Below, in pieces: positions 3,859 to 22,878 of a stretch of DNA of 64,000 nucleotides; within the stretch, counting starts at the first letter, position 1; each line of letters begins with the position of its first letter. The translations under genes were made by a program, and so were the position numbers. The notes under the pieces were generated by a model, which did no database searches, was not told the DNA's origin, and worked only from the letters and a program-made list of their open reading frames with translations. Source of the DNA: a virus; the IMG/VR virus record IMGVR_UViG_3300042807_000094. One strand, given 5' to 3'.

Positions 3859-3872
3859 TTTATACCTCTCTA

Positions 3873-3880: not shown

Positions 3881-3906
3881 CTGTTTGACATAGTAAAGTA
3901 AATAGG

Positions 3907-7717: not shown

Positions 7718-8582
7718 CTTGTAAATCCTCCGCTATTGGGTTCCATTCGTGGTACGAAATAAAAATCTTACCGGGAAACTTGATTTGTTGTGAGACTGAA
7801 TCACCGAGGTAAATCTTATACCATTCCCATGAATCAATCTGACGGAACCAGTCCAACTCTAAAGTGTTTTCTGGTTCCAGTTCATTTCCGCTGTACAATA
7901 TATCCAAGTCCACCTCATCTGTAAAGACTGATTTACAATCCTCTAACAGTTGTCCAGAAATCATGGAGTTCTCGAAAAATCTAAAGTTTTCTAAGAAAGA
8001 TTCCAAGTCCGATTGACCAAAGCTAAAAGGTAGGTGGTAGTTGTCCTTTACTGATTTGCCTCCAGAAGTAAAGAACAAGTTTGGTTTTGTTGCATTTGAC
8101 AGGATTTGTCTGTGTTTCCTAACTGCTTGATGGGGGTAGATACCGAAAGGGAAACTAACAAAGAACCTATTCGGTTTGGTCCAGCTACTAATCTGACCGC
8201 AAATCTTACTAGCAGTCATTGCTCCTTGGATAATCGACCAAGGAAGGCAGTTTTCCTTATGCTTGTCTTCTACTTTGATTGGAACATAGTAGATCGGTAT
8301 AAGCTTACGCCATTGATCTGGTTGGCGAGAAAGCTTTTTGGCTCCAATCGAAGTTGGATCGTAGGTGAAATCACCCATTCGACGGCGTATCAATGGAGTT
8401 GCGCTTTGTTCACACACAACCCAGATTGTTTCACAACCGGCCCATGCTGCTTGATGGACGGCATACTCAACAGCGAAATAGTTAGGGGCTACCGGGATGA
8501 GAGCATCTGACCACGGTAGATTGTATCCTGTTGGTCTAGAAGCTACTGGAACTATCCCTGCCAGATGAAAAGAGTTCGACAT
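7677..8582 (-). CDS. Divergent sugar-phosphate nucleotidyltransferase-like protein
   Basis: N-terminus HLAGIVPVA...LPWSDALIPV...AVEYAVHQAAWAGCETIWVV follows the NTP_transferase pattern but lacks GxGTR. Confidence 0.5.
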   Translation of the reverse strand: MSNSFHLAGIVPVASRPTGYNLPWSDALIPVAPNYFAVEYAVHQAAWAGCETIWVVCEQSATPLIRRRMGDFTYDPTSIGAKKLSRQPDQWRKLIPIYYVPIKVEDKHKENCLPWSIIQGAMTASKICGQISSWTKPNRFFVSFPFGIYPHQAVRKHRQILSNATKPNLFFTSGGKSVKDNYHLPFSFGQSDLESFLENFRFFENSMISGQLLEDCKSVFTDEVDLDILYSGNELEPENTLELDWFRQIDSWEWYKIYLGDSVSQQIKFPGKIFISYHEWNPIAEDLQDATDEEDSTDDDG

Positions 8583-9384
8583 AGTACTTCTTCGGTTTGA
8601 TTGATAGTTCTTGATAAGTATCAAGTATTTGCTGTGGTTTCTCTAGTTTGTAAACCACGTTTGTTCCTGATGATTCTGCTAGCTCGTACTGATAATAGAT
8701 GTCTCTACCAGCATGTTCAAGCACGATTGTCTTAGTGATGATTTCTTCTTTCAGAAGTCTTCTAAGCTTGATTCTACTGATTGTTTCAGTATAATCATCA
8801 GAGAGAATCTGGTCCTGCGTTAGATAGGATCTTACAACACAATCCTTTCTATCTTGATAAGATGATCTTTTTGATTTATAGAACCAGACTTCATTTATAA
8901 ATGGATCATCATAGGAAAGATACGTTTTATCGTGTTTTGATCCATGACGAACGTTGAACCAATCTATAACTGTATGTTTAGTATCAGATAGATTCGGAGT
9001 ATTTGTGATGCCAGATACTTGTTCTGCATCAAATACGATTAGATTGCTAAACTGAGTTTTGACCATTCTAGAAAACTCAGTTGTTAGCTTAAGTAAGTTA
9101 TCGTCTTCGACTCGGATCGAACGAATCAAATCAGAGCCGAAGACTTTACCTTGAAGAGATTGATAGAACATAAGCTTTTCCCACAAGAAAATCTGTGGTA
9201 TCTTGACTTTGTTCTGGAATCCAAAATGCTCTGGATTTCTGATTACCACATCATCAAAGATGAACGGTGGTTTTGGTTGTGTAAACAGTATTGGTAAGTT
9301 GTTGTAATAGGAATACAACAAACTGGAGAGACACCCGCCTATAACCAGTTTCTCATGATTATAAAGATGCCTCTCTAATCTCAT
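8536..9384 (-). CDS. Hypothetical protein, possible degenerate Rossmann/FAD-binding start
   Basis: KLVIGGCLSSL at N-terminus; AT-rich ORF of 282 aa. Confidence 0.45.
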   Translation of the reverse strand: MRLERHLYNHEKLVIGGCLSSLLYSYYNNLPILFTQPKPPFIFDDVVIRNPEHFGFQNKVKIPQIFLWEKLMFYQSLQGKVFGSDLIRSIRVEDDNLLKLTTEFSRMVKTQFSNLIVFDAEQVSGITNTPNLSDTKHTVIDWFNVRHGSKHDKTYLSYDDPFINEVWFYKSKRSSYQDRKDCVVRSYLTQDQILSDDYTETISRIKLRRLLKEEIITKTIVLEHAGRDIYYQYELAESSGTNVVYKLEKPQQILDTYQELSIKPKKYYVELFSSGRDSSSSF

Positions 9385-9536
9385 CCTTTTCCTTGTCCGC
9401 GATAACGCTTACGGTATCCCTTCGGAACTGTACCGTTAGAACCTAGTCTCTTGAACTTGGAATGCTTTCCATTTCCAATAGTGGTCTTTTTCTTCGTTGG
9501 TTGGTAATCTTTACCATTACGTCGTCCTGCTGTCAC
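9381..9536 (-). CDS. Small highly basic protein (51 aa) ending RKRYRGQGKG, absent from ORF track
   Basis: GTG start overlaps glutaredoxin TGA and its TGA overlaps next ATG; fills the gap exactly. Confidence 0.7.
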   Translation of the reverse strand: MTAGRRNGKDYQPTKKKTTIGNGKHSKFKRLGSNGTVPKGYRKRYRGQGKG

Positions 9537-9787
9537 TCTTCAACTCCTAATGTTTTTTTGAGTGTTCCCTCTGCTCTCAGTCTATCAAGATCTGAGAAGC
9601 CTCCAATAAATCTATCATCTACCCAAACTTGTGGTACTGTATTACAGTTAGACAAAGTTCTTAGTGTAGCCCGAGTAGTTTCATCATTTGTAACGTCAAC
9701 CGAAAGGAAAGTGAATCCTTCTGACACTAGTAACTCAACTGCCTTTTTGCACCAAGGGCAGTAACTTGCTGTGTATACTCTAATCAT
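9533..9787 (-). CDS. Glutaredoxin
   Basis: CPWC active site, TVPQV, IGGF motifs. Confidence 0.92.
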   Translation of the reverse strand: MIRVYTASYCPWCKKAVELLVSEGFTFLSVDVTNDETTRATLRTLSNCNTVPQVWVDDRFIGGFSDLDRLRAEGTLKKTLGVEE

Positions 9788-9790
9788 TTA

Positions 9791-9973
9791 TCACCAATCA
9801 TTGTATGTGTCTTCCATTCTTACTTTATCAGCTTCTAGTTGGGCTTCTTTGAGCGTCTTAGTTACAAGATCCAACATAGTTCTGTCTTTATACGAAGTCG
9901 TACTCCACATTAGATACGAATGAAACTCTTGGAGTTGTTCGTATGACATTTGGATTGTGTATCTCTTATCCAT
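9791..9973 (-). CDS. Hypothetical protein
   Basis: Short ORF directly downstream of a sigma70-like promoter. Confidence 0.55.
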   Translation of the reverse strand: MDKRYTIQMSYEQLQEFHSYLMWSTTSYKDRTMLDLVTKTLKEAQLEADKVRMEDTYNDW

Positions 9974-9984
9974 CTATACATCCT

Positions 9985-10013
9985 TTTATAACACAAAATA
10001 CAGCGACTATCAA
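9985..10013 (-). promoter_or_regulatory. Sigma70-like promoter TTGATA-N17-TATAAA
   Basis: Intergenic, 17-nt spacer. Confidence 0.6.
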
Positions 10014-10060
10014 TGAAATAATCATAAATCTGTAATAATGTTTGTCGTCGTTAGTCATTT

Positions 10061-10273
10061 TTATTCCCAAGTTATCTTGATTAACCCAGTAAGGCATTCG
10101 GGGCAAGAGACTTTATCTGTGTAATCGCCACAATCTACTTGCCAGCGTTCTACCGAATGTCCGTGTCCGCACTCGCTACACTGTGACCAACCTGTTCTAC
10201 CTAGGTCAAAAGCACCGCAATCGCATCTATGCCAATCTTGGTGCCAAGAACAAGTTGGCGAATGTTCGTTCAT
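10061..10273 (-). CDS. Small Cys-rich (Zn-ribbon-like) hypothetical protein
   Basis: CSW..HRCDC, CSEC, CPEC; overlaps thyX stop. Confidence 0.55.
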   Translation of the reverse strand: MNEHSPTCSWHQDWHRCDCGAFDLGRTGWSQCSECGHGHSVERWQVDCGDYTDKVSCPECLTGLIKITWE

Positions 10274-10989
10274 TCCCGGTTCTTCCTAAACGCCCCAACC
10301 GCTTCGGGCCAAAGGTCAGTTGCGATTTCCAAGCACGCTTCGGCAACCTTTTGGATTTCCCACTGTGCGCCTTCGTGAGTTCGCAGATCAATAAACTTTA
10401 GCAAGTTAGACAGATTGACCGTTCCGTAGTATTCTGTGTAAAGATTCTGTGGAAGAACGCCTCTTGCTTGTTCGCGACAAACGCCTGCTTCCATAAGATC
10501 GTTGTAGAACTTGACTGCTTTTTGGTTCCAGTCTTTCATTACTGCTGACGCATCACCTTGGAAACCAGCGTTGTTGTAAGGAACTGGAACCATAGGATTG
10601 ATTAGGTCTTCTACATTTGATGCTTGTCTGTTTGACTTGTGTTGTGTTCTGAACTCTTGTGGTTCGTAGAATGCAAGATTCTCGTCAGTATAGCGTCGTG
10701 AAATCTCGTTGTAAGACCAAGTGCGATGTCGGTGATGTTGCGAGCGCACAAAAAGAGGAACGACAAACCTGAAAGTAATAACGTTATGCTCAAAAGTAGA
10801 GGTGTGCTTATGATCAACAAGATAGCGAATAAGCTTTTTGTCTCTTTCGTCCAGTTCATCTTTTGTCTTTCCAAATGAAACGCGGGCAGAGTTTACGATT
10901 GTAAGATCGGTGCCCATGTGGTCTATGTATTCTACTTTTCCAATACCGTCGCCGTATAGCTCGATACTTTTATCATACACCGTATTCAT
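10270..10989 (-). CDS. thyX: Flavin-dependent thymidylate synthase
   Basis: SARVSF, HTSTFEH, RHRTWSYNEISRRY signature, AQWEI. Confidence 0.96.
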   Translation of the reverse strand: MNTVYDKSIELYGDGIGKVEYIDHMGTDLTIVNSARVSFGKTKDELDERDKKLIRYLVDHKHTSTFEHNVITFRFVVPLFVRSQHHRHRTWSYNEISRRYTDENLAFYEPQEFRTQHKSNRQASNVEDLINPMVPVPYNNAGFQGDASAVMKDWNQKAVKFYNDLMEAGVCREQARGVLPQNLYTEYYGTVNLSNLLKFIDLRTHEGAQWEIQKVAEACLEIATDLWPEAVGAFRKNRE

Positions 10990-11398
10990 TGATAATCCTT
11001 AGTCCTTCTACAATAGCTTCTATTCTGTTTTCTTTTACCGGATAAGTATTGACTTTCTTATACCGAAATGGAACGATAAGCTCAAAGGCTTCCGGCCATT
11101 CTACCATGTTATCTACAAATCCGAAAAGTGGGTGAATAAAGAAACCCGACTCTGCTAGTATATCATGTTCCAGTATTCCAAGTGTAGCGGGATCTGTCAA
11201 GACCGGGTAAAGATCTGTTCGACCTTCTAGCCGTCTAGCTGTCTCTTCATCAGAAATCCTGTGAACGTATCCGGTTGTTCCCGGACCATAAGAAGGACTG
11301 ATGTATAGCATTCCCGACTTCCAAGTGAAAGACTCAAGAGGAACTATTTCCCTTCCTAATGCTTCTACTAAATCTAGATCAACTTCATACTTCATCAT
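10973..11398 (-). CDS. Hypothetical protein
   Basis: ORF in overlapping gene run. Confidence 0.55.
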   Translation of the reverse strand: MMKYEVDLDLVEALGREIVPLESFTWKSGMLYISPSYGPGTTGYVHRISDEETARRLEGRTDLYPVLTDPATLGILEHDILAESGFFIHPLFGFVDNMVEWPEAFELIVPFRYKKVNTYPVKENRIEAIVEGLRIINEYGV

Positions 11399-11816
11399 CG
11401 CTCCCTGCGTATCTTGATGGTCGTTTCATTCTTTCTAAATCTTTTTCGTGGCATGAGGTACAAAGATTTCGAATCCAACCTGTAGTCCGAACTGTGGCTG
11501 GTACGCCGCAATCTTCACACGTTTTATAACTCATCATAGATGCCAGCGAGATAGCACCTTGTATTTCTTTGTTGCCACCAATGATGTATGCGCGAAGACC
11601 GCCGAACTTCTCTTTCACTTGTTCGAACTGTACAGGAGGTGCTTTGTTGTATTTGATCTGGTGGTCAATGTATTCGCATAGTGTATCAATCAGATCATAC
11701 CAGCCGTCGCCTGTCTCAATGCCCCAGCACATGCAAGTCTGGTTCATCGGAAGTGAGCGACGAGCAAATAAATCAGGATACTTCTCAAAGAGTTGTTGTT
11801 GTAGTTCTTCTCTCAT
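11385..11816 (-). CDS. Conserved phage hypothetical protein (QVKEKFGGLR, CEDCG)
   Basis: GDGWYDLI, QVKEKFGGLRAY, CEDC/CTSC motifs. Confidence 0.65.
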   Translation of the reverse strand: MREELQQQLFEKYPDLFARRSLPMNQTCMCWGIETGDGWYDLIDTLCEYIDHQIKYNKAPPVQFEQVKEKFGGLRAYIIGGNKEIQGAISLASMMSYKTCEDCGVPATVRTTGWIRNLCTSCHEKDLERMKRPSRYAGSDDEV

Positions 11817-12036
11817 CTTTTTGTTCCTCTAGATGTTCGATGTATCGTGTAAGATACCAGTGTGCTTTCTTTAGATCTTCTAACACTCTGTCATGCTTCT
11901 TGCCAGCCCTTGAAATGTATTTGACAACATTCCCAAGATGGAATCCAAGCTTCCAAGCTTCTATGACTTTGATAGCCTCATATAAGTTATCTGCTCCACC
12001 GTAATGCGAAGGATGATTTACAATGTCAGCCATCAT
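11785..12036 (-). CDS. DUF3310-like protein
   Basis: VNHPSHY, GNVVKYISRAGKK, EDLKKAHWYL. Confidence 0.85.
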   Translation of the reverse strand: MMADIVNHPSHYGGADNLYEAIKVIEAWKLGFHLGNVVKYISRAGKKHDRVLEDLKKAHWYLTRYIEHLEEQKDERRTTTTTL

Positions 12037-12332
12037 TCAACCCACGAAGCAATAACTTGGTTCTCAGGGATAAAATGGTATTCATCCCCGCGAATCTCGA
12101 CAGTCTCCATTAGATGGGTTGGGAATACAACCTTTGCTCCAACTTCGATAGTTGTAGTGCAATCAACAGCAAGGCTTCGCACTTGCGCGATTGTATGTTC
12201 TCTAAGAACTTCCTTAGAACTCTTAAAGTCTTCAGGCAGAAGAATCAAGGGAGTCTGCTCTTCCAAACCGGGAAGTGCATTCTCGACAGTCACAAAGATT
12301 CTCTTATTATGCGGCTCAATCGTAGTCATCAA
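12033..12332 (-). CDS. GroES-like co-chaperonin
   Basis: IEPHNKRIFV, mobile-loop-like TPLILLP, VGAKVVF, EYHFIPENQVIA. Confidence 0.7.
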   Translation of the reverse strand: MMTTIEPHNKRIFVTVENALPGLEEQTPLILLPEDFKSSKEVLREHTIAQVRSLAVDCTTTIEVGAKVVFPTHLMETVEIRGDEYHFIPENQVIASWVE

Positions 12333-12583
12333 TACTCCATAAACTTGTTTGATTCGATTGCTCTTTCATGTAATCGGTACTTGTCCGTAGGCATAAACTC
12401 ATCATGCAAACGCTTACAACGCTTACAGATAAATCGAACGCATACGTTATTACCACGCATTGCTTGGATGTGACTCGTTGCCACCCAAGTATGCTTTTGT
12501 TTGCCCGTTGCAGATGCAGGGCAATCTTCTATTTGTTTGTCATTATCAAGAAGATAGTTGAGCTTCATTTCGCCCTCCAACAT
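12329..12583 (-). CDS. Hypothetical protein with C/H ligands
   Basis: CP...HTW...CKRC; follows sigma70-like promoter. Confidence 0.55.
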   Translation of the reverse strand: MLEGEMKLNYLLDNDKQIEDCPASATGKQKHTWVATSHIQAMRGNNVCVRFICKRCKRLHDEFMPTDKYRLHERAIESNKFMEY

Positions 12584-12587
12584 TTAC

Positions 12588-12616
12588 ATTATAACCGTTG
12601 GGGGTAAGCGCGTCAA
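12588..12616 (-). promoter_or_regulatory. Sigma70-like promoter TTGACG-N17-TATAAT
   Basis: Near-perfect consensus in intergenic gap. Confidence 0.85.
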
Positions 12617-12635
12617 CTATCTTCGATAAAAAATC

Positions 12636-13175
12636 TTAGACTTTGGCTCTTTGCTGAATAAGATAGATGAAAGTCTCAATATCGTTAGCATGAGCGGCGA
12701 GCATGTCATTCACGCCAAGAGGAAGTTCGCCAGCTTCTTCTAGCTGATCGAAAACACCGGTCATTAGCTGGTGATGGTCTTTGAGCATTTGTAGACCAGT
12801 TTGTACAATAACTTCTGCATTCGCGTTAGCAGGGCTTTCGTATGATTGGATTACTTCCATAGCCTTCTTAGTGTTGCAAGAAGGGCAACCCATCATTTCA
12901 TCGCCGCTATTACCAATAGCCTTCTCAACGGCTTCGTCATACTGTCCTTCTAAGGCACCGTAAATCTCGCCAAATAGATTTGGATGATCGCCAGAAAAGC
13001 CAACACCCTTTGCTACATTGTGCGCGCCGTGGAACCAAAGTTGATTACCACGAATAGAACCAATGTATTGGCCCATTAGATCCCTGAATAGTGAAGAAGC
13101 TTGTGGTTGTTTAGAGAGAACTACTGCTACTTCTTCTAGGATAATCTTCTTTAGTTGGGCTTTTGTAAGCTTCAT
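12636..13175 (-). CDS. Dps/ferritin-like protein with N-terminal MKLTKAQLKKIILEE leader
   Basis: WFHGAHNVAKGVGFSGDHPNLFGEIY...YDEAVEK matches Dps ferroxidase ligand spacing. Confidence 0.75.
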   Translation of the reverse strand: MKLTKAQLKKIILEEVAVVLSKQPQASSLFRDLMGQYIGSIRGNQLWFHGAHNVAKGVGFSGDHPNLFGEIYGALEGQYDEAVEKAIGNSGDEMMGCPSCNTKKAMEVIQSYESPANANAEVIVQTGLQMLKDHHQLMTGVFDQLEEAGELPLGVNDMLAAHANDIETFIYLIQQRAKV

Positions 13176-13193
13176 GGTTGTTGTTCCTAAAAC

Positions 13194-13622
13194 TTATTTA
13201 TATTTCTTTAAGTCGTTTTCTGCTTTTTTTAGGGCTTCCTCTGCTTGACGAATCCTTTCGTTTTGTTCTTCTCTGGTATTGGGTATTTCACGACTTCCTT
13301 TCAGACCAAAAGCTACTTTTGTACCTGGAGATTTTTTGAGTTCTTCTATATCTTTTTTGAGTTCGGTTATTTTATTTTCCAGCTTTTCGGCTTTTACCTT
13401 ATCTGTATCTGTAGTTTCAACACCCATGGAATCGGCTATTTCTGCTCTTTTTTCCGCAGTACTTGTTGCGCTCATCATACCACCAGTTAATAGCGTGGCG
13501 GCTAATGCTATAGAGCCTAAGACTTTTTCAAACACACCCTCATTAAGTTCTTGCTTATTGAATAGTTCTTTCTCTATCTCTTCTTTGATAATCTGACGAA
13601 GTTGAGTAGTTGTGATTTTCAT
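13194..13622 (-). CDS. Hypothetical protein with MKITTTQLRQIIKEE leader, hydrophobic segment and coiled coil
   Basis: Leader motif; preceded by ACTATTTA; AT-rich. Confidence 0.65.
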   Translation of the reverse strand: MKITTTQLRQIIKEEIEKELFNKQELNEGVFEKVLGSIALAATLLTGGMMSATSTAEKRAEIADSMGVETTDTDKVKAEKLENKITELKKDIEELKKSPGTKVAFGLKGSREIPNTREEQNERIRQAEEALKKAENDLKKYK

Positions 13623-13639
13623 TTATTTCCCCTTAACAC

Positions 13640-13679
13640 AAATAAATAGTCCTTCCTGCCCAAAATAGACAGGAAGGAC
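13640..13679 (-). terminator. Intrinsic terminator after nrdJ C-part, overlapping an ACTATTTA motif (13643-13650)
   Basis: 10-bp stem GTCCTTCCTG/CAGGAAGGAC followed by TATTTATTT. Confidence 0.7.
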
Positions 13680-13685
13680 ACATTA

Positions 13686-14732
13686 TTACTTCAGATCGCA
13701 GGCACCACCGGCACAAGCGGCCTGATCTGTAAGATTAGTGTTGTCATCTACTTCATGAACATAGTTGAGGTCGATTGACTTTAGAGCCTCAAATAGTTTG
13801 TTATAGGTTTCATCATCACAATCTTCGTAAGGTGCTTGCTTGTAGGTGTGTTCAAACGCTGGAAGAACCGAAAGACCATTGTAGAATGCTCTGTTTTGCC
13901 ACATCCACTCGCCAACTGTATCCCATTCATCATTCTTGATTGAGACAGTAGCAGAGACATTATGGGTGTTTTGTCCCTTGCGGTGTCCTGACTTAATCCA
14001 AGTTTGACTTACCTTCTTCACTCTCTCCAAAAGGTCAATAGCAGACTCTGTACGAACGATTGAACCTTCTGGTGCCTTTTGTGGTACCGAAATAACAGCG
14101 GTGTCGTGTGGGCGGAAGTATTCGTCCTCGATTAGTTCTGGGTGGTTCTCTACGAGGTAGGTGTAGATTGCTTCATTCTTGCCGACACGGATACGACGAA
14201 TGTAAGTATCGTTGTGCCAAGCGTGAATGCCCGAAGAAGTTCCAAGAACAAGTGAAGTTGTACCTGAAGGCTTGACGCAAGTTGTTCTTGCTGCTGGATT
14301 GATTCCCAAAAGAGCCGCAGCGCGGGCATTTTCTTCTTTTACAACTTGTGCTGCTCTTACCATATCAAGATCAAGAACCTTTCCAGAAGCAATACCAGTC
14401 ATTCCAACACCGATTAGAGCGTCCTTCTCGGTTGTTCTCTGCCAAACTGGACGGAGATAGTGGAAGTCTGTGTAAGATGCTTGTAGAGTGCCAATAAACG
14501 CTGCTGCGCGGACTCTTGCTTCGTAGTCTTCCTGACTTTCCACATCGCTTACGTTCACTTCTGTTAGGTTACAGAACTGGTAAGGGCGAAGAGCAATTTC
14601 GCAGTTGTGAACCAACAACTCATTAGCAAAAAAGTTATGGTTCTTTTTTACTTGAATGTCATAAACGTCTCTATTCTTTTCAATAGTTATACGCTTGATC
14701 TTGGTTCTTGTAATATTCGTAGTCGTTTCCAT
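13686..14732 (-). CDS. nrdJ: Class II ribonucleotide reductase C-terminal fragment fused to C-intein
   Basis: 43-aa IntC ending LVHN then CEIALRPYQFCNLTEVN, CVKPSGTTS, C-terminal ACAGGAC. Confidence 0.93.
   Translation of the reverse strand: METTTNITRTKIKRITIEKNRDVYDIQVKKNHNFFANELLVHNCEIALRPYQFCNLTEVNVSDVESQEDYEARVRAAAFIGTLQASYTDFHYLRPVWQRTTEKDALIGVGMTGIASGKVLDLDMVRAAQVVKEENARAAALLGINPAARTTCVKPSGTTSLVLGTSSGIHAWHNDTYIRRIRVGKNEAIYTYLVENHPELIEDEYFRPHDTAVISVPQKAPEGSIVRTESAIDLLERVKKVSQTWIKSGHRKGQNTHNVSATVSIKNDEWDTVGEWMWQNRAFYNGLSVLPAFEHTYKQAPYEDCDDETYNKLFEALKSIDLNYVHEVDDNTNLTDQAACAGGACDLK
14604..14732 (-). mobile_element. Split intein C-half (IntC, 43 aa)
   Basis: VYDIQV..NHNFFANELLVHN blocks F/G, +1 residue Cys. 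Confidence 0.93.
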
Positions 14733-15511
14733 TCTAATATCTCCTTATTATAGGTGGTGGTTATATATGGTCCTATATCTCTTATTAGGACTATTTCTAT
14801 ATCCAGTCTTTTTGATAGTTCTTCTGTTTTTACTATCCCTCTATCCCAAAACCCTTTGATTTCAACTATTTTCATCAAAGTTCCTTCTTCGTAGATAAAA
14901 AAGTCTGGTCTATACGTTGTTTTCTCAAGTTGGAAAGTTTGCTGTTCTACATCCCATTCTATCGCATGAGAGTCAAGCCACTTGGCATATATATATTCAT
15001 ATGTGCTACGAAGCCAAACAAACTTATTTCTTGTTCTGTTGAAGTAGTATCCCTGAATGCCTCGCGAGGTCTTATTAGTCTTTCTATGAAAGGTCTTAAA
15101 CCAACCTGCTCTATTGTTATACAACGACTTCAGGTTTTCACTTCTTATTTCTTTTGTTTTGTTATATACTATATTTTTGCCTTTATTTATCTCTATACCA
15201 AGTATTGAAAAAAGAGTTCTTACTCTCGTTGGTGTCAAGTCTATCTTTTTGCCTATTGTTTTCAAACCATACCCTTCACTATAAAGAGAAGATATAAAAC
15301 TTTTAGCAAAACAATATTCGCTTGGATATATCCTACTAATATTGTTGATAATAAAACTTCTTTTGTTGCTTGCGCGGGCGGTATTGCCAAGTTCAGCGAC
15401 TCTATTAGAAGCGTATATTTTGTACTCTTCTGCGAAGTCTTCTGGTATAAGTACGACTTTTCCTTTTTCGTGGTTGAGATATATTGTTCTTATCGCTTCT
15501 TCTATTTTCAT
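14687..15511 (-). CDS. Free-standing PD-(D/E)XK-type putative homing endonuclease inserted in nrdJ
   Basis: STYEYIYAKWLD...WDVEQQTF...YRPDFFIY...IVEIKGFW; HTH-like segment LKTIGKKIDLTPTRVRTLF; AT-rich; start placed at MKIEE behind GGAG. Confidence 0.78.
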   Translation of the reverse strand: MKIEEAIRTIYLNHEKGKVVLIPEDFAEEYKIYASNRVAELGNTARASNKRSFIINNISRIYPSEYCFAKSFISSLYSEGYGLKTIGKKIDLTPTRVRTLFSILGIEINKGKNIVYNKTKEIRSENLKSLYNNRAGWFKTFHRKTNKTSRGIQGYYFNRTRNKFVWLRSTYEYIYAKWLDSHAIEWDVEQQTFQLEKTTYRPDFFIYEEGTLMKIVEIKGFWDRGIVKTEELSKRLDIEIVLIRDIGPYITTTYNKEILEWKRLRILQEPRSSV

Positions 15512-15512
15512 G

Positions 15513-15562
15513 TTTGCGGGCTCCAACCCCTACATTATAAATAGTTTATTGGAGCCCGCAAA
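15513..15562 (-). promoter_or_regulatory. RBS-sequestering hairpin with ACTATTTA motif (15538-15545) in its loop
   Basis: Perfect 14-bp inverted repeat 15513-15526 / 15549-15562; the arm next to the ATG contains GGAG. Confidence 0.8.
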
Positions 15563-15567
15563 GATAC

Positions 15568-16809
15568 TCATTCAATAGAAAGTAGTATATCTTCTTCTGT
15601 CAAGTGTGCTGCTTCAACATATCCCCTATTCTCTGTGAATACTCTATGGTCGGGAGTTAGAATGAGGACTTGGCCGCTTTCTGTTTCGATCCTGATAACA
15701 TCAGCGTCTTCTCTCGTCATGGCTGCTTCTTCTACTGGTTGTAGTTCAAGACTACAAGTTGCTTCATCGTAAGAAAGCACGCTGATCGATTCGCCACTCT
15801 CAACCCTTTCAACCAACTCACGCATAGTCATTTGACCAACGTTTGTTGTAATGAGGGTGTCTCCGTCAACGCAACAAGGGTTTGTTCCCCAATCTTTATC
15901 GTTATTTAGGTAAATACCGGGTTCTCCTGAACCACTTTCACGAATGCGGGTCCAAAGATCCATAAAGTATTCTTTCTCAACCTTGTGGCGAAGAAGAACG
16001 GCAGAGTTGTTAGCACGACCGCGTTGTGGGTTTGTTTCCCACCAGTTTCCTGCCTTACAAGCAATCATTTCGTCGTCGTCAGCAGAGAATAGCGAAATCA
16101 AAGCAGCGCGGCGAATACCACCAGCAAGCACGGCATCTGCGATGTGACACATAATGTCGTGGCATTCAATAGGAGTTAGCTTATCGCCGTCCTTCTTTGT
16201 GTTCAGCATTCCGTCAATCTTCACCAAACACTCAACGAGAGGTTGTGGTCCCGGTGCTTTACCGCCTGATGTAACCAAACGGGCACCCTTGGGGCGAATG
16301 TCCGAGAAGTCAAAGCGAATACGACTTGTTCCCCTGAAGTAAGATTGTAGAAGCACGCGAACAGCATCGGCCCAACCTTCAATCGAATCTCCAACAAGGA
16401 ATCGCTTTTCGCGACCGGATGGAATCCGAATCTCTGGTAGTTTCTCAACGTGATGCTTCTGAACCGAGAAGCCTACGCCGGTTCCGCCAAGAAGCAAGAA
16501 CATTGCTTCCGAGAAAGAACGTAGATCATCAATAGGCATAAATGCACAGTTGAAGATTCGGTTTGGGGCAATCTCGATTGGCTTGCCACCAAACTGCATT
16601 GAACGCATCGAAGGCAATACTTGACGACTGAAAACATACTTGTATGCTTCCCTTATCTCTGATTCAAGATGTGGGTACTTCTTGATGTGCATTTCAAGAT
16701 TGCGTTCCGTGATTTCCTCATAAGATTCACGGCGGTATTCTTCTGGTAGATACCTTGCGTATTTCATATGGACTGTAATGTCCGACAAAATCCTAGTTGC
16801 TAGATTCAT
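15568..16809 (-). CDS. nrdJ: Class II (B12-dependent, monomeric RTPR-like) ribonucleotide reductase N-terminal fragment fused to N-intein
   Basis: VLPSMRSMQFGG, RIFNCAF, GGTGVGFS, TSGGKAPGP, VLAGGIRRAALISL, GEPG, GTNPC then CVDGDT intein start. Confidence 0.93.
   Translation of the reverse strand: MNLATRILSDITVHMKYARYLPEEYRRESYEEITERNLEMHIKKYPHLESEIREAYKYVFSRQVLPSMRSMQFGGKPIEIAPNRIFNCAFMPIDDLRSFSEAMFLLLGGTGVGFSVQKHHVEKLPEIRIPSGREKRFLVGDSIEGWADAVRVLLQSYFRGTSRIRFDFSDIRPKGARLVTSGGKAPGPQPLVECLVKIDGMLNTKKDGDKLTPIECHDIMCHIADAVLAGGIRRAALISLFSADDDEMIACKAGNWWETNPQRGRANNSAVLLRHKVEKEYFMDLWTRIRESGSGEPGIYLNNDKDWGTNPCCVDGDTLITTNVGQMTMRELVERVESGESISVLSYDEATCSLELQPVEEAAMTREDADVIRIETESGQVLILTPDHRVFTENRGYVEAAHLTEEDILLSIE
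15571..15873 (-). mobile_element. Split intein N-half (IntN, 101 aa)
   Basis: Block A CVDGDTLI, block B LTPDHRVFT, ENRGYVEA, ends at a stop codon. Confidence 0.93.
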
Positions 16810-18214
16810 TTTCTGTATTCTCCGTTATGTTTGCTCTAATAGATTGTCTAAACTTCTTGTACTTGTCTTTGAGGCGTTGAGCTTGATCTTTAGCTGTCAA
16901 GTTTGTTGTTTGACCCAGCGACAAGGGATCTTGATTTGTATTTGGTACCTTCATCTTGATACTCACATTCCTAGTACTCATGTCAATAGGGAATACGATA
17001 CCATCCGGTCCAAACCGATTCTTAGCAACAAAGATCCTGCCTGTATTGTTCTGCTTGTCTTCAATCGTTCTTGATACTGTAAAGATGAAATCAGCAACAA
17101 AGCATTTCGAAAAAGCTTCTGAGATTGATTCCATTGTGATTACTTCGGCATTCAAGCCAGACCGATTGGTCTGTGAAGCAGTCCAAATAGGGCATTGGAA
17201 CTGTTGTGCTAGTCCTCTTAGTCCCTCGTAGATTGATTCTAACTCGTTCCTCTTTTCCTTGTCTCTAGTGACCGGCTTTAGCAAGTCGCCATAGTCAACC
17301 ACCACCATGTCCACTTTTGTTCCCTTTGCACGCAACCTTTCAAGGTGTGATTGCAAAGTATTTACGCTAGCCGTTTTGGTGGGGTATTCTTTGATAATTA
17401 GTGCGCCGGGGACTTGCTCGACCGATTCACGAATGATTTCTTTGTGGTTCATCAACTCGCTTAGTGGAAGCTCGGTAATACAGCTATCGTACCTTTGCGC
17501 GATAACGGTGTCTGATAGCTCTAGGGTGTAGTGAACTACTGTCTTGCCTTGCTTGACCGCTTGCGCTCCCAAATGCACCAACACCATTGATTTACCGGCA
17601 CCCGTAGGGGCGATTACAACTCCTAGCTCTCCGTTACCAATACCGCCGCCCGTGATTTGGTCAATCTCGTTCCAAGTAGTTGGGATTGGATCTCGGGCCT
17701 TTAGTTCGAACCGACGTTCGAAATCCTTTAGGTAATCATAGCCAAAGTCATTCGAAGAACCAAGCTTTACAGCATCTGTGATCAACTTGGTGATTTCATC
17801 GAACGAAGCTGTGTTGATTAGCTTTGCCGACTTGATCATGACTTCTTTTAGCTTTTGCTTACGGCAAAAGTCTAGAGAAGTATCCTTGATAAAGCCGGAC
17901 TCTTCTACTTCTTCTCTAGCGAAAACCCGAGCGACGAAATCAACGACTTGTCGCTTTGTTGCATCATTCTCGTCATTCAGACCTGATTTGATGATTGTAA
18001 CCATAGTCTTGCGACTAGGATGAATCTTGTAGTTCTTTCGATGTTCGACAATCTTCTCGACAAACACACGAAGATACTTGAGTTCCAAGAAGTTTGGGTC
18101 AAATACTTCCAGTAGTTGATCTGCGAAAGGTCGATCATCGAGGATTAGACTACATAGGTCTTCTTGGAAAGACTTGCCGTACTGTGCAAAGTTGACCGGC
18201 TTCTGTTCCAACAT
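16793..18214 (-). CDS. Replicative DnaB-like (T4 gp41-like) helicase
   Basis: Walker A APTGAGKS, VVVDYGDLL, WTASQTNR, AKNRFG. Confidence 0.93.
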   Translation of the reverse strand: MLEQKPVNFAQYGKSFQEDLCSLILDDRPFADQLLEVFDPNFLELKYLRVFVEKIVEHRKNYKIHPSRKTMVTIIKSGLNDENDATKRQVVDFVARVFAREEVEESGFIKDTSLDFCRKQKLKEVMIKSAKLINTASFDEITKLITDAVKLGSSNDFGYDYLKDFERRFELKARDPIPTTWNEIDQITGGGIGNGELGVVIAPTGAGKSMVLVHLGAQAVKQGKTVVHYTLELSDTVIAQRYDSCITELPLSELMNHKEIIRESVEQVPGALIIKEYPTKTASVNTLQSHLERLRAKGTKVDMVVVDYGDLLKPVTRDKEKRNELESIYEGLRGLAQQFQCPIWTASQTNRSGLNAEVITMESISEAFSKCFVADFIFTVSRTIEDKQNNTGRIFVAKNRFGPDGIVFPIDMSTRNVSIKMKVPNTNQDPLSLGQTTNLTAKDQAQRLKDKYKKFRQSIRANITENTENESSN

Positions 18215-18241
18215 TAGTGTACCTCTTTATTTTCGAGTATA

Positions 18242-18270
18242 ATCATAACCCTTTCACGCTTGCCCGTCAA
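18242..18270 (-). promoter_or_regulatory. Sigma70-like promoter TTGACG-N17-TATGAT upstream of helicase/nrdJ
   Basis: Near-consensus, 17-nt spacer. Confidence 0.7.
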
Positions 18271-19249
18271 GCGTTTTGCTATTGCTTGACACAATGCGTC
18301 GAAGGCTAACAGTGATGTCCGACCAATCAAATGCTGCGAAGCCGTTCTTTAGAGAAAGAGACTTTAGATTAGTGATGTTCAGATCAAACCCAAAGTTATC
18401 CAAAGCGTAGTTGATTTTCTCACGACCTTGGACCGAGATAGAAGGAGGAGAAAGATTCATCATCTTGTAGTTGTCTTGGACAATGCTGAAGTTCCTAGCA
18501 ATGGTATCGTATGCACTAGACTGCTTTAGATTTTCATTGCAGTATTCCAACACCTCGCGAAGATAGAAGCCCTTGGTTTCCTTCAAGAAAGGAAAACGCT
18601 TGGCAATCGTCGCAAGACCAACGCCACCAACACCGGGAAGATTATCAGACTTGTCACCAGCAATGGCACGGGCGATTGCAAAGTTCTCAGGAGCAATACC
18701 ATACTCTTCGATAACATTCTTGCTAGTGTGAATCTGCTTTTGGATTGGACGATATAGGATAGTCTCTTCGTCTAGAAGTTGCAAGAAGTCCTTATCAGAA
18801 GAAACAATAATCCTCTGCCACCCATCATACTTAGAGTGTGAGCAAACATAGGAAATCAAATCATCTGCTTCCACATTATCCAGCATAAGCTGAATGATGG
18901 GCATCTCGTTGATAACTTCCAAAAGAAGAGAGTGCTGCCAGACTTGGTTCTCTTTCTTGCTTTGCTCGCTCATACCTTCCACTTCGTAGTTGGTACGAAT
19001 AGGCTTACGACCAGCCTTGTATTCCTTAATGATCTCACGACGCTTCTGAGAGCCGCCGGGACCATCCCAGCAAATAACCACTTGGGTAGGCTTCATTTCC
19101 CTCATTAGCTTGTTTAGAGAGCCAAGGAAGCCTACAACACCGCCAATAGGATTACCATTGGTGGAAATAGCGGGATTGACAATGTATCCACGAAGATACA
19201 TGTTCAGCCCGTCAATAATCATAACTCGCTTATTATTGTCAGTCGCCAT
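18254..19249 (-). CDS. 5'-3' exonuclease / flap endonuclease (T4 RNase H, PolI N-domain family)
   Basis: IIDGLNM, WDG, EYKAGR, VEADDLI, SSDKDFLQL, GDKSDNLPGVGGVG; start behind GGAGG. Confidence 0.92.
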   Translation of the reverse strand: MATDNNKRVMIIDGLNMYLRGYIVNPAISTNGNPIGGVVGFLGSLNKLMREMKPTQVVICWDGPGGSQKRREIIKEYKAGRKPIRTNYEVEGMSEQSKKENQVWQHSLLLEVINEMPIIQLMLDNVEADDLISYVCSHSKYDGWQRIIVSSDKDFLQLLDEETILYRPIQKQIHTSKNVIEEYGIAPENFAIARAIAGDKSDNLPGVGGVGLATIAKRFPFLKETKGFYLREVLEYCNENLKQSSAYDTIARNFSIVQDNYKMMNLSPPSISVQGREKINYALDNFGFDLNITNLKSLSLKNGFAAFDWSDITVSLRRIVSSNSKTLDGQA

Positions 19250-19712
19250 TGTTTGCCTCCTTCTTCGGCTTAGGCTGTCTCGTTTGGTAAAACAAATCTT
19301 CATCGGTCAAACCATTGCTGAGCTTGATGCTGGCAACATGCTCATCGTCAACGGTGTAAACCACCTTCTTGATCCCAACATGCTCCATGACTCGGAGACA
19401 CATTGGACACGGCTTCGAAAGCCGAAACTCATTCCTCTTTCCGACGCGGGCAACGTACATAACAGCCCCATCGGTAACATCGCGAGCAATGCCAAGAACA
19501 GCACCGACTTCGGCGTGTTGCGTAGCATGACCGCAGTTATGATTGCGAAAACGATTCGCCCACCAAACAGATCGCAAATCATTGCAAGACGTATTGATGA
19601 TAGAACCGCCCTTAACAAGAACGGCTCCGTGGCGATAATCCGGGGAATCTGAGCAAGTCGCAATCTTCTTGGCCAGTTCCAAATACCTGCGCTGTCGCTT
19701 CGTCAAACTCAT
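19239..19712 (-). CDS. Cytidine/deoxycytidylate deaminase family protein
   Basis: HGAVLVKGG, HAE, SKPCPMC zinc motifs. Confidence 0.85.
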   Translation of the reverse strand: MSLTKRQRRYLELAKKIATCSDSPDYRHGAVLVKGGSIINTSCNDLRSVWWANRFRNHNCGHATQHAEVGAVLGIARDVTDGAVMYVARVGKRNEFRLSKPCPMCLRVMEHVGIKKVVYTVDDEHVASIKLSNGLTDEDLFYQTRQPKPKKEANNGD

Positions 19713-19715
19713 GAA

Positions 19716-19760
19716 CCCCTCATACGTTTATAATATATCGTATGAGGGGCCGAGCGTCCA
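19716..19760 (-). promoter_or_regulatory. 11-bp inverted repeat over the deaminase RBS, overlapping candidate promoter TGGACG-N17-TATATT
   Basis: CCCCTCATACG 19716-19726 / CGTATGAGGGG 19739-19749. Confidence 0.55.
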
Positions 19761-19782
19761 GCAGAACTTTGTCAAGCGAATG

Positions 19783-20913
19783 TCAGTCTAGCTCGTCGTC
19801 CACTGAGTCTACGTCAAAGTAATCTTCTGCATTACCTTCGCGAGTCTCAAACTTCACAATGATCTCTTCATCCATCAACTGCAAAACTCTTTCCCTGAAT
19901 CTATCAGACTCTAGCTTCTCTTTCCAGTTAGCTGCTTGGAACTTCTCTTTGGTTCCATCTTCATAGACCAGCGAGAACCAAGCTCCTGCCTGTTCAAGAT
20001 GTTTAGAAGACTTAACTGCATTGAACCAGCTTTCTTCGTCTTGGACCTTTGCGAGTCCTCCTGCCCAAATAATCTTGAATGTACACTCACGATTGAGAGA
20101 GCCGAAACGTGACTTCTTGATCTTAGCCTTGACTTCCGAACCGATTGGATAACCACGTTCATCAAGAATGTAGCTGTCCTTTGCCTTACGACCAGTTAGC
20201 CAAATACGCAGCGAGTATGCATACGCTGGTGCCTTGCCACCGGGAGTAAAATAAGGCTCTGTCAGAAGCTCTGCCCTATTAGAAGTAATATTAGTCTTAA
20301 GCTGATTAAGGATCAACAGTGTAGACTTGGTATTAGCGATAGGGATTGTTAGCTTAGAAAAAGCTCTTGACAAGATTCTTGGCTTCATAGCCATTGAGGA
20401 CATTGGATCAAACGAACCTTCTACGTCTGCTGCTGCTGGCGTATTAGCTAGTGAGTCCCAAATAAAGAACATAGAACCGTTATTAGCGGTCAGTAGTTCT
20501 TCGATTGTCTCCAGAACCAGTTCTGTTGTTGTTGCTTGGATGTATAGAAGCTTATTTAGATCACAACCTGTTGCTTCTAGAAACTCTGGATCTACTGCTG
20601 ATTCTGAATCAAAGTAGACTACATCCATTCCTTTTGCCATTGCGTTTGCTGCGATTTGTGCAGCCATGTATGATTTACCGGTACCTTCTAGACCGGCGAT
20701 TTCTGTAATCTTTCCTACGGGGATACCAGCAAGCTTACCACGGCAAATAATAGAATCCAACCAGCGTGCGCCAGTTGGAACCCAATCAGTTACCTCAGTT
20801 GGATTTTCCTTCGTTAGATCATGAGCAATCTCTTGTCCATACTTCTTATTGACAAGGTTTCTCATTTCTGCGATGGATAGCTTGCCCGGTTTACTTTCAG
20901 TCTTACGGGCCAT
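19783..20913 (-). CDS. recA: RecA/UvsX-like recombinase
   Basis: GIPVGKITEIAGLEGTGKS, YFDSESAVD, WDSLA, NQLK, TPGGKA. Confidence 0.93.
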   Translation of the reverse strand: MARKTESKPGKLSIAEMRNLVNKKYGQEIAHDLTKENPTEVTDWVPTGARWLDSIICRGKLAGIPVGKITEIAGLEGTGKSYMAAQIAANAMAKGMDVVYFDSESAVDPEFLEATGCDLNKLLYIQATTTELVLETIEELLTANNGSMFFIWDSLANTPAAADVEGSFDPMSSMAMKPRILSRAFSKLTIPIANTKSTLLILNQLKTNITSNRAELLTEPYFTPGGKAPAYAYSLRIWLTGRKAKDSYILDERGYPIGSEVKAKIKKSRFGSLNRECTFKIIWAGGLAKVQDEESWFNAVKSSKHLEQAGAWFSLVYEDGTKEKFQAANWKEKLESDRFRERVLQLMDEEIIVKFETREGNAEDYFDVDSVDDELD

Positions 20914-20924
20914 TACAACTCCAT

Positions 20925-21137
20925 TTAGTTTATTGTAAATGCGTGTGATCTAGCGTGATTCTTACCAACAACATAGATTGTATTTGTTTCTTCTTTGACT
21001 TGGACTAAACCAATCTTAGGTTCAGAACCATAAGCATTCACAAATGGTATAGCAGCCCAAGCTACTATTAAAACAAATACAGCCCAAAGGGTGTAGTTAA
21101 CATCAAACTGATACAAACGCTCGTCTTCTTCTTTCAT
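20925..21137 (-). CDS. Small membrane protein
   Basis: One hydrophobic helix TLWAVFVLIVAWAAIPFV; GGAG RBS. Confidence 0.55.
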   Translation of the reverse strand: MKEEDERLYQFDVNYTLWAVFVLIVAWAAIPFVNAYGSEPKIGLVQVKEETNTIYVVGKNHARSHAFTIN

Positions 21138-21151
21138 ACCCGTACTCCGAA

Positions 21152-21189
21152 ACCGGAGAGCCGTAGCTCTCCGGTCGAGTATAAGTAGT
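21152..21189 (-). promoter_or_regulatory. ACTACTTA motif (21182-21189) followed by 10-bp C(UACG)G hairpin (21152-21175)
   Basis: ACCGGAGAGC-TACG-GCTCTCCGGT directly after ssb stop. Confidence 0.55.
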
Positions 21190-21194
21190 TTTTA

Positions 21195-21983
21195 TCACTT
21201 ACTAGCGGCACTAATCTCACGGAAAACTGAGTTCAAAAGATCATCGTCCGAGCTTGTATTAGCGTTGTACTTCTGAACTTCTGGGCCTGCACCATTTTGG
21301 TCGCTTAGGAACTCATCAAGAAGATTAGTGATTTGTTGCGCGGTCAAACGCTCAAACAACGAATCAAATGACGGCATTGACTCTAGGAGTTCGGCGCAAC
21401 GAGTTGAACCACCGATTGCCTTAGAGCAAAGCACAGAGGTCTTACGACGAGGAGCAACGTCAGTCTCAGCGAACATACGACCGGTCTTGGTGGAGTACGA
21501 GATTGTCAAATCGGTACCCTCTTCGGTATCGGTGATATCACCATAGTCTGGATTCAACACAAGGCTCAACAGCTTCTTGTAAACAGTACCGCCATAACCC
21601 CAAACACGGATACCCTTGTCTTCTTCACCACGGACCAAAACTGGTGAGAAGTAACGCTCCTTCACGAATAGCGACTTAGCGAGCTTCTTATCTTCATCGT
21701 CGTTGTTAGCGACACCATCACGCCAAGTCTGTGAAGCAAACTCACAGATTGGGCATTGCTCACCAAAGTTCTTCTTCAGACACAATACAGTCTTACGCTT
21801 ACCACCAACCTCTAGGTAGTGGAAGTGGAAATCACGGAACGGATCTCCGTCTGATGGGCACACAATGCGAATGTCTTGCTCGCCCTCTACTGGCTTCCAA
21901 AAAGTCGAAACCTTACTGGACGTATCGCCCTTACTCTCGGTTGCAGAAAGCTTAGCCTTCATCTTGCTGATATCAATAGCCAT
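21195..21983 (-). CDS. Single-stranded DNA-binding protein, T4 gp32-like
   Basis: FWKP, HFHYL, CPICE, RYFSPVLVRG, WGYG, DYGDITD; acidic C-tail. Confidence 0.85.
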   Translation of the reverse strand: MAIDISKMKAKLSATESKGDTSSKVSTFWKPVEGEQDIRIVCPSDGDPFRDFHFHYLEVGGKRKTVLCLKKNFGEQCPICEFASQTWRDGVANNDDEDKKLAKSLFVKERYFSPVLVRGEEDKGIRVWGYGGTVYKKLLSLVLNPDYGDITDTEEGTDLTISYSTKTGRMFAETDVAPRRKTSVLCSKAIGGSTRCAELLESMPSFDSLFERLTAQQITNLLDEFLSDQNGAGPEVQKYNANTSSDDDLLNSVFREISAASK

Positions 21984-22044
21984 TTTGTTTTTTCCTTTAT
22001 GTTAGTTGTGGGTTTTACCCTAAAGTCAATAGGAAGATTTATTC

Positions 22045-22878
22045 CTATCGCTGCTCTTGCACGAATGAAGTATGTTCCAAGACATACACTAAATCTCTAT
22101 CATACTTTGTAGGATAGAAACTGAATGAAACGGTTTTGGTTTCCGTTGTGTTAGATTTTACTTCTTCTTTAGCACGCTTCAGTAAGTCGTTCGATTTTGA
22201 CAACCGTGCCTCACTGATAGCATAAATGTAACTCTCTTCTCTTACGTTGGCAAGGCCGTAGAACATCTTTTTTACATCGTCTTCAAGACTCTTGATTCCG
22301 ATAGTAGAAATACGATTTGTTTCTGTCGGTTGATCCAAGCTGCCCATAATAGGCGAGTTGTTACGATACACATTGATCATGTGCAAGGTATTAGCAATCA
22401 AAACATTGATTTGATCCCAATACCCAATAATAGGTAGTTCGCCAGCGATTTCTTCAACCTTCTGATTGTTGATCAGATAGATCCGCTCAAACTTACCGGA
22501 TCGTGTGAAATGCTGTAATACATTTGTTACGACCTTCTGATTCAAAGCTTTCTTATGGCTTAACGTAACTGGATCAGCTTCAACGCTGACAATCGTGATA
22601 TTGCGATCCTTGATTCCCTCTAAGATTCGGAGTGACAAAGCGGAGACAAGAGAACCACCGCTCACAATCATTATAACATCATCACTGGTCAAACAGCCAT
22701 ACAATAATGTCAAATCGATGTTAGTTGATTCATAGGCTTCGGGATCGTTATGCTTCTTGATTCGAATGGTCCTTTCTACTTGTTGATCGTGGTCTACACA
22801 AACAACATTGTATTGTGGGTATTTTTCGAACTGTGCCGCGATTCTCGATCCGACACCTCCCAAGCCGATAACATTCAT
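22045..22878 (-). CDS. Divergent tubulin/FtsZ (PhuZ/TubZ-like) family protein
   Basis: VIGLGGVGSRIA, VVCVD, degenerate signature SGGSLVS, IYLINN, YWDQINVLIA. Confidence 0.65.
   Translation of the reverse strand: MNVIGLGGVGSRIAAQFEKYPQYNVVCVDHDQQVERTIRIKKHNDPEAYESTNIDLTLLYGCLTSDDVIMIVSGGSLVSALSLRILEGIKDRNITIVSVEADPVTLSHKKALNQKVVTNVLQHFTRSGKFERIYLINNQKVEEIAGELPIIGYWDQINVLIANTLHMINVYRNNSPIMGSLDQPTETNRISTIGIKSLEDDVKKMFYGLANVREESYIYAISEARLSKSNDLLKRAKEEVKSNTTETKTVSFSFYPTKYDRDLVYVLEHTSFVQEQR

Follow-up and report, generated by a model that had tools for sequence, protein, structure and literature searches.

Several homing endonuclease genes of phages are known to be controlled by an RNA hairpin which masks the ribosome-binding site (RBS). 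Experiments are reported to have demonstrated this switch for I-TevI and for mobE of phage Aeh1, and it has also been described for I-TevII, I-TevIII and segB (PMC2988022). Masking on early transcripts is further known for the T4 late genes soc, e, 39, 25 and 26 (PMC2988022). A related set of loci are the fractured genes surveyed by Dassa et al. (2009; NAR 37:2560, PMC2677866), where an RNA hairpin was found upstream of the initiation codon at 15 of 16 loci, 10 with the late-promoter box TATAAATA, and where the same role was proposed for the endonuclease hairpins, NrdJ loci included. Here we describe a hairpin located immediately ahead of a free-standing endonuclease gene which, together with a split intein, interrupts the class II ribonucleotide reductase gene nrdJ in the IMG/VR virus record IMGVR_UViG_3300042807_000094. 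The whole 64,000-nt stretch of DNA analysed is referred to below as the window. The hairpin is probably a timing switch, which would keep the nuclease silent on RNA started upstream and allow its synthesis from a putative late-type promoter located in the hairpin loop.

The locus has the layout described by Dassa et al. (2009) for fractured genes: the break in the host gene falls at an intein site (an NrdJ from a freshwater lake is among their examples), and the endonuclease open reading frame (ORF) lies between the ORFs containing the N-terminal (IntN) and C-terminal (IntC) intein halves. As in those loci, in which the 3' end of the endonuclease gene overlaps the start of IntC by 6-69 bp, an overlap is present, here of 46 nt. 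In addition, as in the I-TevI, segB and Aeh1 mobE type of control, in which the Shine-Dalgarno (SD) sequence and/or the start codon are paired, the hairpin pairs the SD sequence of the nuclease gene. The similarity to I-TevI and Aeh1 mobE had been pointed out in an earlier note on this DNA, made from the sequence alone, which described both precedents accurately (PMC2988022).

The nuclease leader hairpin

Unless otherwise stated, all the features described below are on the minus strand of the window. The stem begins 5 nt after the stop codon TGA (15570-15568) of nrdJ-N, the gene for the upstream half of the reductase. The 5' arm, TTTGCGGGCTCCAA (15562-15549), was defined by folding and by covariation in relatives, and is expected only on transcripts started upstream. 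It is followed by a loop of 22 nt (15548-15527) and by the 3' arm, TTGGAGCCCGCAAA (15526-15513), after which a single C (15512) precedes the ATG of the nuclease gene (15511-15509). Read directly on the minus strand, this is the perfect 14-bp inverted repeat reported in the earlier note, and an inverted-repeat scan extends it to 17 nt at 94% complementarity. The downstream arm does carry, as had been stated, a GGAG shortly before the ATG, namely at 15524-15521 with a spacing of 9 nt. The loop holds the octamer ACTATTTA (15545-15538), which includes the core CTATTTA (15544-15538), and the 5' arm ends 4 nt upstream of this box. The loop also contains, at 15535-15530, an ATG directly followed by TAG, about where several relatives have their sole start codon; this relic suggests that the start codon has been relocated in the copy present in the window.

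The predicted RNA structure is far more stable than expected by chance: a 121-nt RNA folds at -36.3 kcal/mol, compared with -17.7 +/- 3.1 kcal/mol for 200 dinucleotide shuffles (z = -6.1), none of which was as good. Among the 71 gene starts of the window, that of the nuclease is the most base-paired (pairing probability 0.84 over positions -15 to +3, median 0.51), and the energy of its start region is the second lowest (-30.5, median -11.7). The observation made in the earlier note is thus confirmed. In a scan of the whole window, the nuclease leader hairpin was the sole long, near-perfect and non-overlapping inverted repeat of such size. RNA started within the loop is instead predicted to retain only a residual 4-bp stem, of about -5.5 kcal/mol. 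Because there is no U-tract 3' of the stem (the next letters are CAUGAAAAUAG), the hairpin is not a canonical intrinsic terminator; it is absent from the list produced by the terminator scan, and a search of Rfam found no family for it at E <= 1.

The hairpin is conserved in the closest distinct relatives of the nuclease, which are all found in fractured nrdJ genes and share with it 81% (L029), 66-69% (L030-L033) or 63% (L008 and L034) identity. All 7 keep a hairpin around an invariant CTATTTATA, while the sequences of the arms differ, and the 5' arm is in each case wholly upstream of CTATTTATA, ending 0-4 nt before it. A covariance model built on four of the relatives recovers the remaining ones. 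In the resulting alignment of 7 distinct sense-strand rows, 98% of the cells are standard pairs and 7 of the 15 pairs have changed on both sides, although these counts, which exclude the reverse-strand and weak covariance rows (L049, L096), are inflated because the rows share ancestry and were aligned by fitting them to the structure. The replacement of one arm pair, CUCCAA:UUGGAG, by CAC:GUG is an example of such changes. None of 2000 column shuffles reached the paired fraction observed, and slid partners gave 21-59%. An alternative alignment of the 7 relatives, obtained with MAFFT and RNAalifold, misaligned the arms and retained 8 pairs only, and the covariance-model alignment was used instead.

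In 7 of 7 sequences, each with 2-4 G-U pairs, the sense strand gives a stabler fold than the antisense strand, which favours an RNA structure formed by the mRNA strand over a DNA palindrome. On these comparative grounds, we consider it close to certain that the RNA structure is functional. The position of the start codon relative to the hairpin is variable: it follows the 3' arm in the window and in L029, both positions are present in L031 and L032, and in L030, L033 and L034 it comes 4-5 nt after the box, inside the loop, and codons 5-12 contain the 3' arm.

A promoter-like box in the loop

The octamer ACTATTTA occurs 10 times in the window, always on the minus strand, against 2.8 copies expected; no shuffle reached 10. 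In an unbiased count of 7-mers in the 56 nt before the genes of the window, its core CTATTTA shows the strongest enrichment (9 of 12 copies, p 9e-10), and it is also the top upstream 7-mer (12 of 24 copies, p 3e-10) in G001, a virus record that is compared with the window in the next section. CTACTTA is likewise enriched upstream of genes, and at orthologous sites of the window and G001 T and C alternate at position 4 of the core box, which is therefore written here as CTAYTTA. The ratio of boxes on the coding strand to boxes on the other strand is 10:0 in the window, 14:0 in G001 and, in a second contig belonging to that phage, 8:0. Intergenic boxes are located 12-44 nt before start codons and upstream of the SD sequence, often right after a hairpin with a T-run, and the genes behind them code for the prohead protease, an adaptor-like protein, the tail sheath and the tail tube, and include an operon with the major head protein.

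The loop motif thus recurs before structural genes (protease, capsid, sheath and tube), as the earlier note had observed, and its further suggestion that the motif is a late promoter working on the minus strand is supported by the comparison, the motif being the top upstream 7-mer, confined to the coding strand and invariant in the loops. In these comparisons CTAYTTA behaves as a short, single-box promoter of structural genes; we infer the 'late' timing of the class from the class of genes only. A literature search for CTATTTA as a phage late promoter found nothing relevant in the library searched.

The T4 late box TATAAATA is absent from the coding strand of the loop, where CTATTTA is found, and is present only on the opposite strand, so that the T4 arrangement, with TATAAATA read by gp55, is not the one encountered here. 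A candidate divergent late sigma factor for CTAYTTA is encoded by a 246-amino-acid (aa) ORF of G001 (99364-99747; L109 1312-2049, minus strand), whose resemblance to the late sigma family of T4 gp55 (phrog_234) is borderline, with E 2.7e-5 per genome and 0.0015 when the whole PHROG library is considered, and which has no Pfam hit.

Two other structures of the window contain the CTACTTA form of the box. A second hairpin of the same design (3829-3886), conserved in G001, is located before a gene which does not code for a nuclease. CTACTTA and the SD sequence are in its 5' arm (3886-3867) and the ATG (3858) is in its loop, while its 3' arm (3848-3829) falls within the coding sequence; the arms are 85% complementary over 20 nt, and the region 3810-3920 folds at -25.2 kcal/mol (z -2.3). 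The ORF list places the start of this gene at 3891, but the ATG at 3858, with GAGAGG, looks likelier. At 21137-21195, a G+C-rich tetraloop hairpin of 9 bp, CCGGAGAGC-TACG-GCTCTCCGG, comes 7 nt after CTACTTA (at 21188) and precedes TTTCGG. This hairpin, which is identical in G001, may serve as a stabiliser of a 5' end or represent a very short transcript.

The mobile cassette and its transcription unit

The phage is a distant relative of T4, with a portal protein 44-46% identical to those of Microcystis phage Mel-JY01 and of the Flavobacterium 'immuto' phages, and the minus strand is coding over about 96% of the window. The locus consists of a class II ribonucleotide reductase gene fractured by a split intein and a free-standing nuclease gene. 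The nrdJ-N gene (15568-16809) codes for the N-terminal extein (312 aa) and IntN, as shown by the Pfam RNR-II insertion domain and Intein_splicing matches and by the junction with respect to the intact allele of G001; IntN starts at the Cys codon 15873-15871. The nuclease gene (14687-15511, 274 aa from the ATG at 15511) was recognized from weak matches to PHROG endonucleases and to DUF790, from an alignment of 8 lineages and from 151 metagenomic relatives. IntC, identified by a Pfam intein-half match, and the C-terminal extein are encoded by nrdJ-C (13686-14732), which has a strong SD sequence of its own, AGGAG (14745-14741), situated 8 nt before the ATG (14732) and inside the nuclease gene.

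The whole cassette, composed of IntN, hairpin, nuclease gene and IntC, covers 1270 nt (14604-15873) and is missing from G001, whose nrdJ is intact, codes for 617 aa and reads NPC|CEIAL. Considering that the flanks of the two records are 97-99% identical, the segment 14604-15873 is, by this comparison, a recently gained or lost mobile cassette, of which the hairpin is a part. For users of NrdJ-type split inteins, this documents a natural locus beside an intact, cassette-free allele. A cassette-free joint (14600->15872) is also present in a 971-nt contig from a freshwater RNA-seq library (run X15), with 45 and 9 differences on the two sides; the contig may originate from RNA or from carried-over DNA. 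Parts of the stretch were found in 20 runs, 6 of which are RNA libraries, all as contigs, and the contigs of four RNA runs placed on 2501-22500 leave 15174-15840 uncovered. To judge from these assemblies, cassette-bearing and cassette-free phages of the lineage are found together in freshwater data sets.

The nrdJ-N, nuclease and nrdJ-C genes are tightly packed on one strand. A simple scan found no terminator-like site between nrdJ-N and nrdJ-C, and matches to sigma-70-like promoters across the scanned region were no commoner than in shuffles. Because no such terminator or promoter separates the three genes, read-through RNA should carry both arms of the hairpin. As the locus is laid out, RNA expressing both halves of the reductase must cross the hairpin and the nuclease gene, while translation of nrdJ-C would be independent of that of the nuclease because of its own AGGAG. 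The nuclease gene thus appears embedded in an earlier transcription unit, as far as the arrangement of the genes indicates. A terminator-like hairpin (13649-13679), directly followed by the next CTATTTA box, closes the nrdJ unit.

Behind this box (at 13649) lies a 142-aa ORF (13194-13622) that is missing from G001, where the box directly precedes a Dps-like gene of 179 aa. It is also missing from an RNA-library contig (joint 13175->13628), and has the appearance of a recently inserted or duplicated gene sharing the leader MK(L/I)T..QL.

The nuclease and the hairpins of its relatives

Relatives of the nuclease were found in viral contigs (17) and in metagenome contigs (151), whereas a tblastn search of cultured-phage records gave no match. 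Its core, E...PDFF...EIKG, is of the PD-(D/E)xK-like type and is conserved across 8 lineages (alignment A1), and the conserved blocks of the family are WLRS(T/S)YEYIYAKWLD, Y(R/K)PDFFI and (I/L)VE(I/V)K. No strong match to a Pfam family was obtained, the matches being weak only (E about 0.002-0.007). Sequence searches did not assign the protein to the Vsr-like (EDxHD) or GIY-YIG endonucleases: no Pfam Vsr or GIY-YIG hit was obtained at E <= 0.01, and the profile of the 8 lineages gave no match at E <= 1 in a sequence search against solved structures, I-Bth0305I included. On these grounds, the nuclease may represent a family of homing endonucleases separate from those described for fractured genes, which are of the Vsr-like and GIY-YIG types.

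Strong folding upstream of the nuclease is a property of the family. The 54 usable distinct upstream regions have a median fold z of -2.75, and 59% of them have z <= -2, compared with a median of 0.01 and 10% for 194 ordinary gene starts; mononucleotide shuffles were used for these z-scores. A criterion based on a helix of at least 10 bp over the start region was dropped in favour of z-scores, as 53% of ordinary genes meet it. A late-type box is present within the hairpin in 25 of the 54 regions (9 with CTAYTTA, 17 with NATAAATA, 1 with both).

L044 belongs to a separate nuclease lineage, 37% identical, which branches away from the clade of the window with strong support; it is also inserted in nrdJ, with an extein 59% identical to that of the window, and has a 17-bp hairpin with CTACTTA in the loop. 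Distant relatives in other phages have TATAAATA in the equivalent hairpins, and in G003, the host of one such relative, TATAAATA is found in a ratio of 16:1 on the coding strand, ACTATTTA is almost absent and a clear gp55 homologue is present. As far as could be tested, in two lineages, the box in the hairpin appears to follow the resident phage.

Distant relatives (L041, L043, L060, L091-L093, L096, L097, L100, L103-L105 and others) share hairpin arms, AATCC(T/C)TG ... CA(A/G)GGATT, directly before the ATG, in which the sequence is conserved and not just the pairing. In another subgroup of distant relatives, the 5' arm CAAGGATTAT pairs with codons 2-5 (NNPW). These arms are probably equivalent to the two motifs, conserved and complementary to each other, of Dassa et al. 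(2009; PMC2677866).

Discussion

We propose that the hairpin acts as a mask, which keeps the nuclease gene of a mobile split-intein cassette from being translated. Transcripts started upstream, with the replication genes, would run through the cassette to express nrdJ-C. On such read-through RNA, which has both arms, GGAG and the region before the AUG would be locked in a stem of about -30 kcal/mol and no nuclease would be made, while nrdJ-C, with an AGGAG of its own, would still be translated. The CTATTTA of the loop would be the promoter box used by this lineage for its structural genes, presumably late, and RNA started a few bases after it would lack the 5' arm, retain just the residual stem of 4 bp and be translatable. 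The nuclease would consequently be made only while promoters of the CTAYTTA class are active. We assign to this complete timing-switch model a probability of roughly 0.7. Repression of nuclease translation by the hairpin is likely, judging from the comparative data, and the promoter activity of the loop box and its late timing are what we infer from the distribution of CTAYTTA. The idea that a switch delays the nuclease while nrdJ is read through, put forward in the earlier note, gains support from covariation, from the invariance of the loop box and from the unbroken transcription unit.

Several observations weigh against the timing switch. The perfect repeat of the window copy folds on either strand, and the covariation counts are inflated as stated above. 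The gp55-like match in G001 is only borderline for a sigma factor reading CTAYTTA, and the RNA-library contigs found come only from cassette-free relatives. Moreover, the GGAG is not conserved, close relatives having GGAA, and the sole ATG of several relatives is in the loop and has no SD sequence, so that occlusion of the RBS in the strict sense is not uniform in the family. This arrangement suggests that the relatives with a sole loop ATG have leaderless late mRNAs.

Among the alternatives, the one that fares best, and that we still regard as unlikely, is a constitutive translational attenuator, which would keep nuclease output low at all times, with leakage by breathing of the stem or by ribosomes terminating on nrdJ-N, and in which the loop CTATTTA would not be used as a promoter. 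The nrdJ-N stop codon is only 5 nt before the stem, and a terminating ribosome could open the lowest pairs; the promoter activity of the box is putative; and many T4 endonuclease genes are promoter-less cassettes (PMC2988022). However, an attenuator does not account for the invariance of CTATTTATA in the loops of 7 relatives whose arms have changed at 7 of 15 pairs, nor for the CTACTTA in the loop of the independent lineage L044 and the TATAAATA of distant relatives. In addition, the size of the ribosome footprint implies that a terminating ribosome should reach just the first 3-4 pairs of the stem.

It is less probable that the hairpin is an element for RNA processing, stability or termination, such as an RNase III-type site or a protector of the nrdJ-N 3' end, with a secondary effect on nuclease translation. 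The hairpin does directly follow the nrdJ-N stop, Dassa et al. proposed that the invading element supplies the signals that stop transcription of the upstream gene (PMC2677866), and RNase E processing is reported near Aeh1 mobE (PMC2988022). Nevertheless, the absence of a U-tract and of a call by the terminator scan does not fit termination, and nrdJ-C, which is downstream, must be co-expressed with nrdJ-N. The hairpin, furthermore, tracks the start of the nuclease gene and not the IntN stop: in L034 about 120 nt separate it from the stop, and the ATG lies within it. Finally, a stem of 14-15 bp is a short substrate for RNase III.

Even less credit can be given to an action of the inverted repeat as DNA, either as an operator, bound by a dimeric repressor or used by the nuclease to repress itself, or as a cruciform. 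A perfect palindrome flanking a promoter-like box would suit an operator, and autorepression of I-TevI at its late promoter is a precedent (PMC2988022), but the G-U pairs of the relatives work on the sense strand only, where the fold is the more stable in 7 of 7 cases, and the arm sequences are not conserved even among close relatives with proteins 63-81% identical. Nor does the upstream region resemble the homing site: when the 60-nt empty site was compared without gaps with the 90-nt upstream region, the best match was 12/20, and 245 of 300 shuffles were as good.

Lastly, the notion that the functional box is TATAAATA on the plus strand (15536-15543), driving an antisense RNA over the 5' arm and the end of nrdJ-N, is very improbable, because, even if TATAAATAG is on the plus strand in the window and, through the invariant CTATTTATA, in all 7 close relatives, the genome-wide signal is that of coding-strand CTAYTTA only (14:0 in G001), including CTACTTA, whose complement is no T4 box, at least 4 of the 11 plus-strand TATAAATA of G001 merely overlap ACTATTTA sites followed by TA, and the box of the TATAAATA-type relatives points towards the nuclease gene. 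None of these rivals explains together the invariant box, the changing arms and the boxes matched to the lineage.

The hairpin comparison provides independent support for CTAYTTA as a real promoter in a group of uncultured freshwater phages, with the box inside the hairpin matching the resident phage. Since at least two separate lineages of the nuclease have CTAYTTA and others have TATAAATA, hairpin loops in endonuclease leaders could reveal the late-promoter motifs of uncultured phages. A bolder and tentative extension, which we rate at somewhat less than an even chance, is that CTAYTTA represents a late-promoter class of its own, which belongs to a freshwater lineage distantly related to T4 and is recognized by a highly divergent gp55-like sigma factor, and that the cassettes refit the hairpin box to each lineage they invade. 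If this is true, the nucleases of relatives with a sole AUG 4-5 nt after the box and no SD sequence would be translated from leaderless late mRNAs.

The known picture of homing-endonuclease regulation is left unchanged by these results. The resemblance to the I-TevI/segB type is in the masking of the RBS on early or middle read-through RNA, in the placement of a box such that RNA started from it lacks the upstream arm (here as predicted from the locus), and in the embedding of the gene in an early nucleotide-metabolism unit. That type, however, comprises GIY-YIG or HNH enzymes, in group I introns or at intergenic sites, and uses TATAAATA with mapped starts; besides, I-TevI autorepresses through an operator resembling its homing site, a resemblance not found here. 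In Aeh1, as here, a free-standing endonuclease gene, mobE, fractures a ribonucleotide reductase gene (Gibb and Edgell, 2007, 2009, cited in PMC2988022 and PMC2677866). In Aeh1, mobE is reported to be co-transcribed with both halves, to have an RBS sequestered by a hairpin and to be expressed at late times only, as is predicted for the present locus; mobE differs in being an HNH enzyme in a class I reductase gene (nrdA), with no intein and with two NrdA chains that assemble unspliced. The second hairpin of the window (3829-3886), with CTACTTA in its 5' arm and a non-nuclease gene behind it, is comparable to the masking of ordinary genes such as T4 soc, but the T4 cases involve different genes and a different promoter box. 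With respect to the loci of Dassa et al. (2009), the coding-strand loop box is here CTATTTA and not TATAAATA, the arm motifs AATCCTTG/CAAGGATT of distant relatives are absent from the window copy, and the nuclease is PD-(D/E)xK-like, sequence searches having given no match to Vsr, GIY-YIG or a solved structure. Both the design and its presence in fractured genes have been published before, and the differences of the present locus are a non-T4 box on the coding strand and a nuclease which by sequence matches neither the Vsr-like nor the GIY-YIG type. These differences suggest that the T4 design of hiding the ribosome-binding site until late in infection travels with split-intein/endonuclease cassettes and reaches lineages of phages in which the T4 late box is not used.

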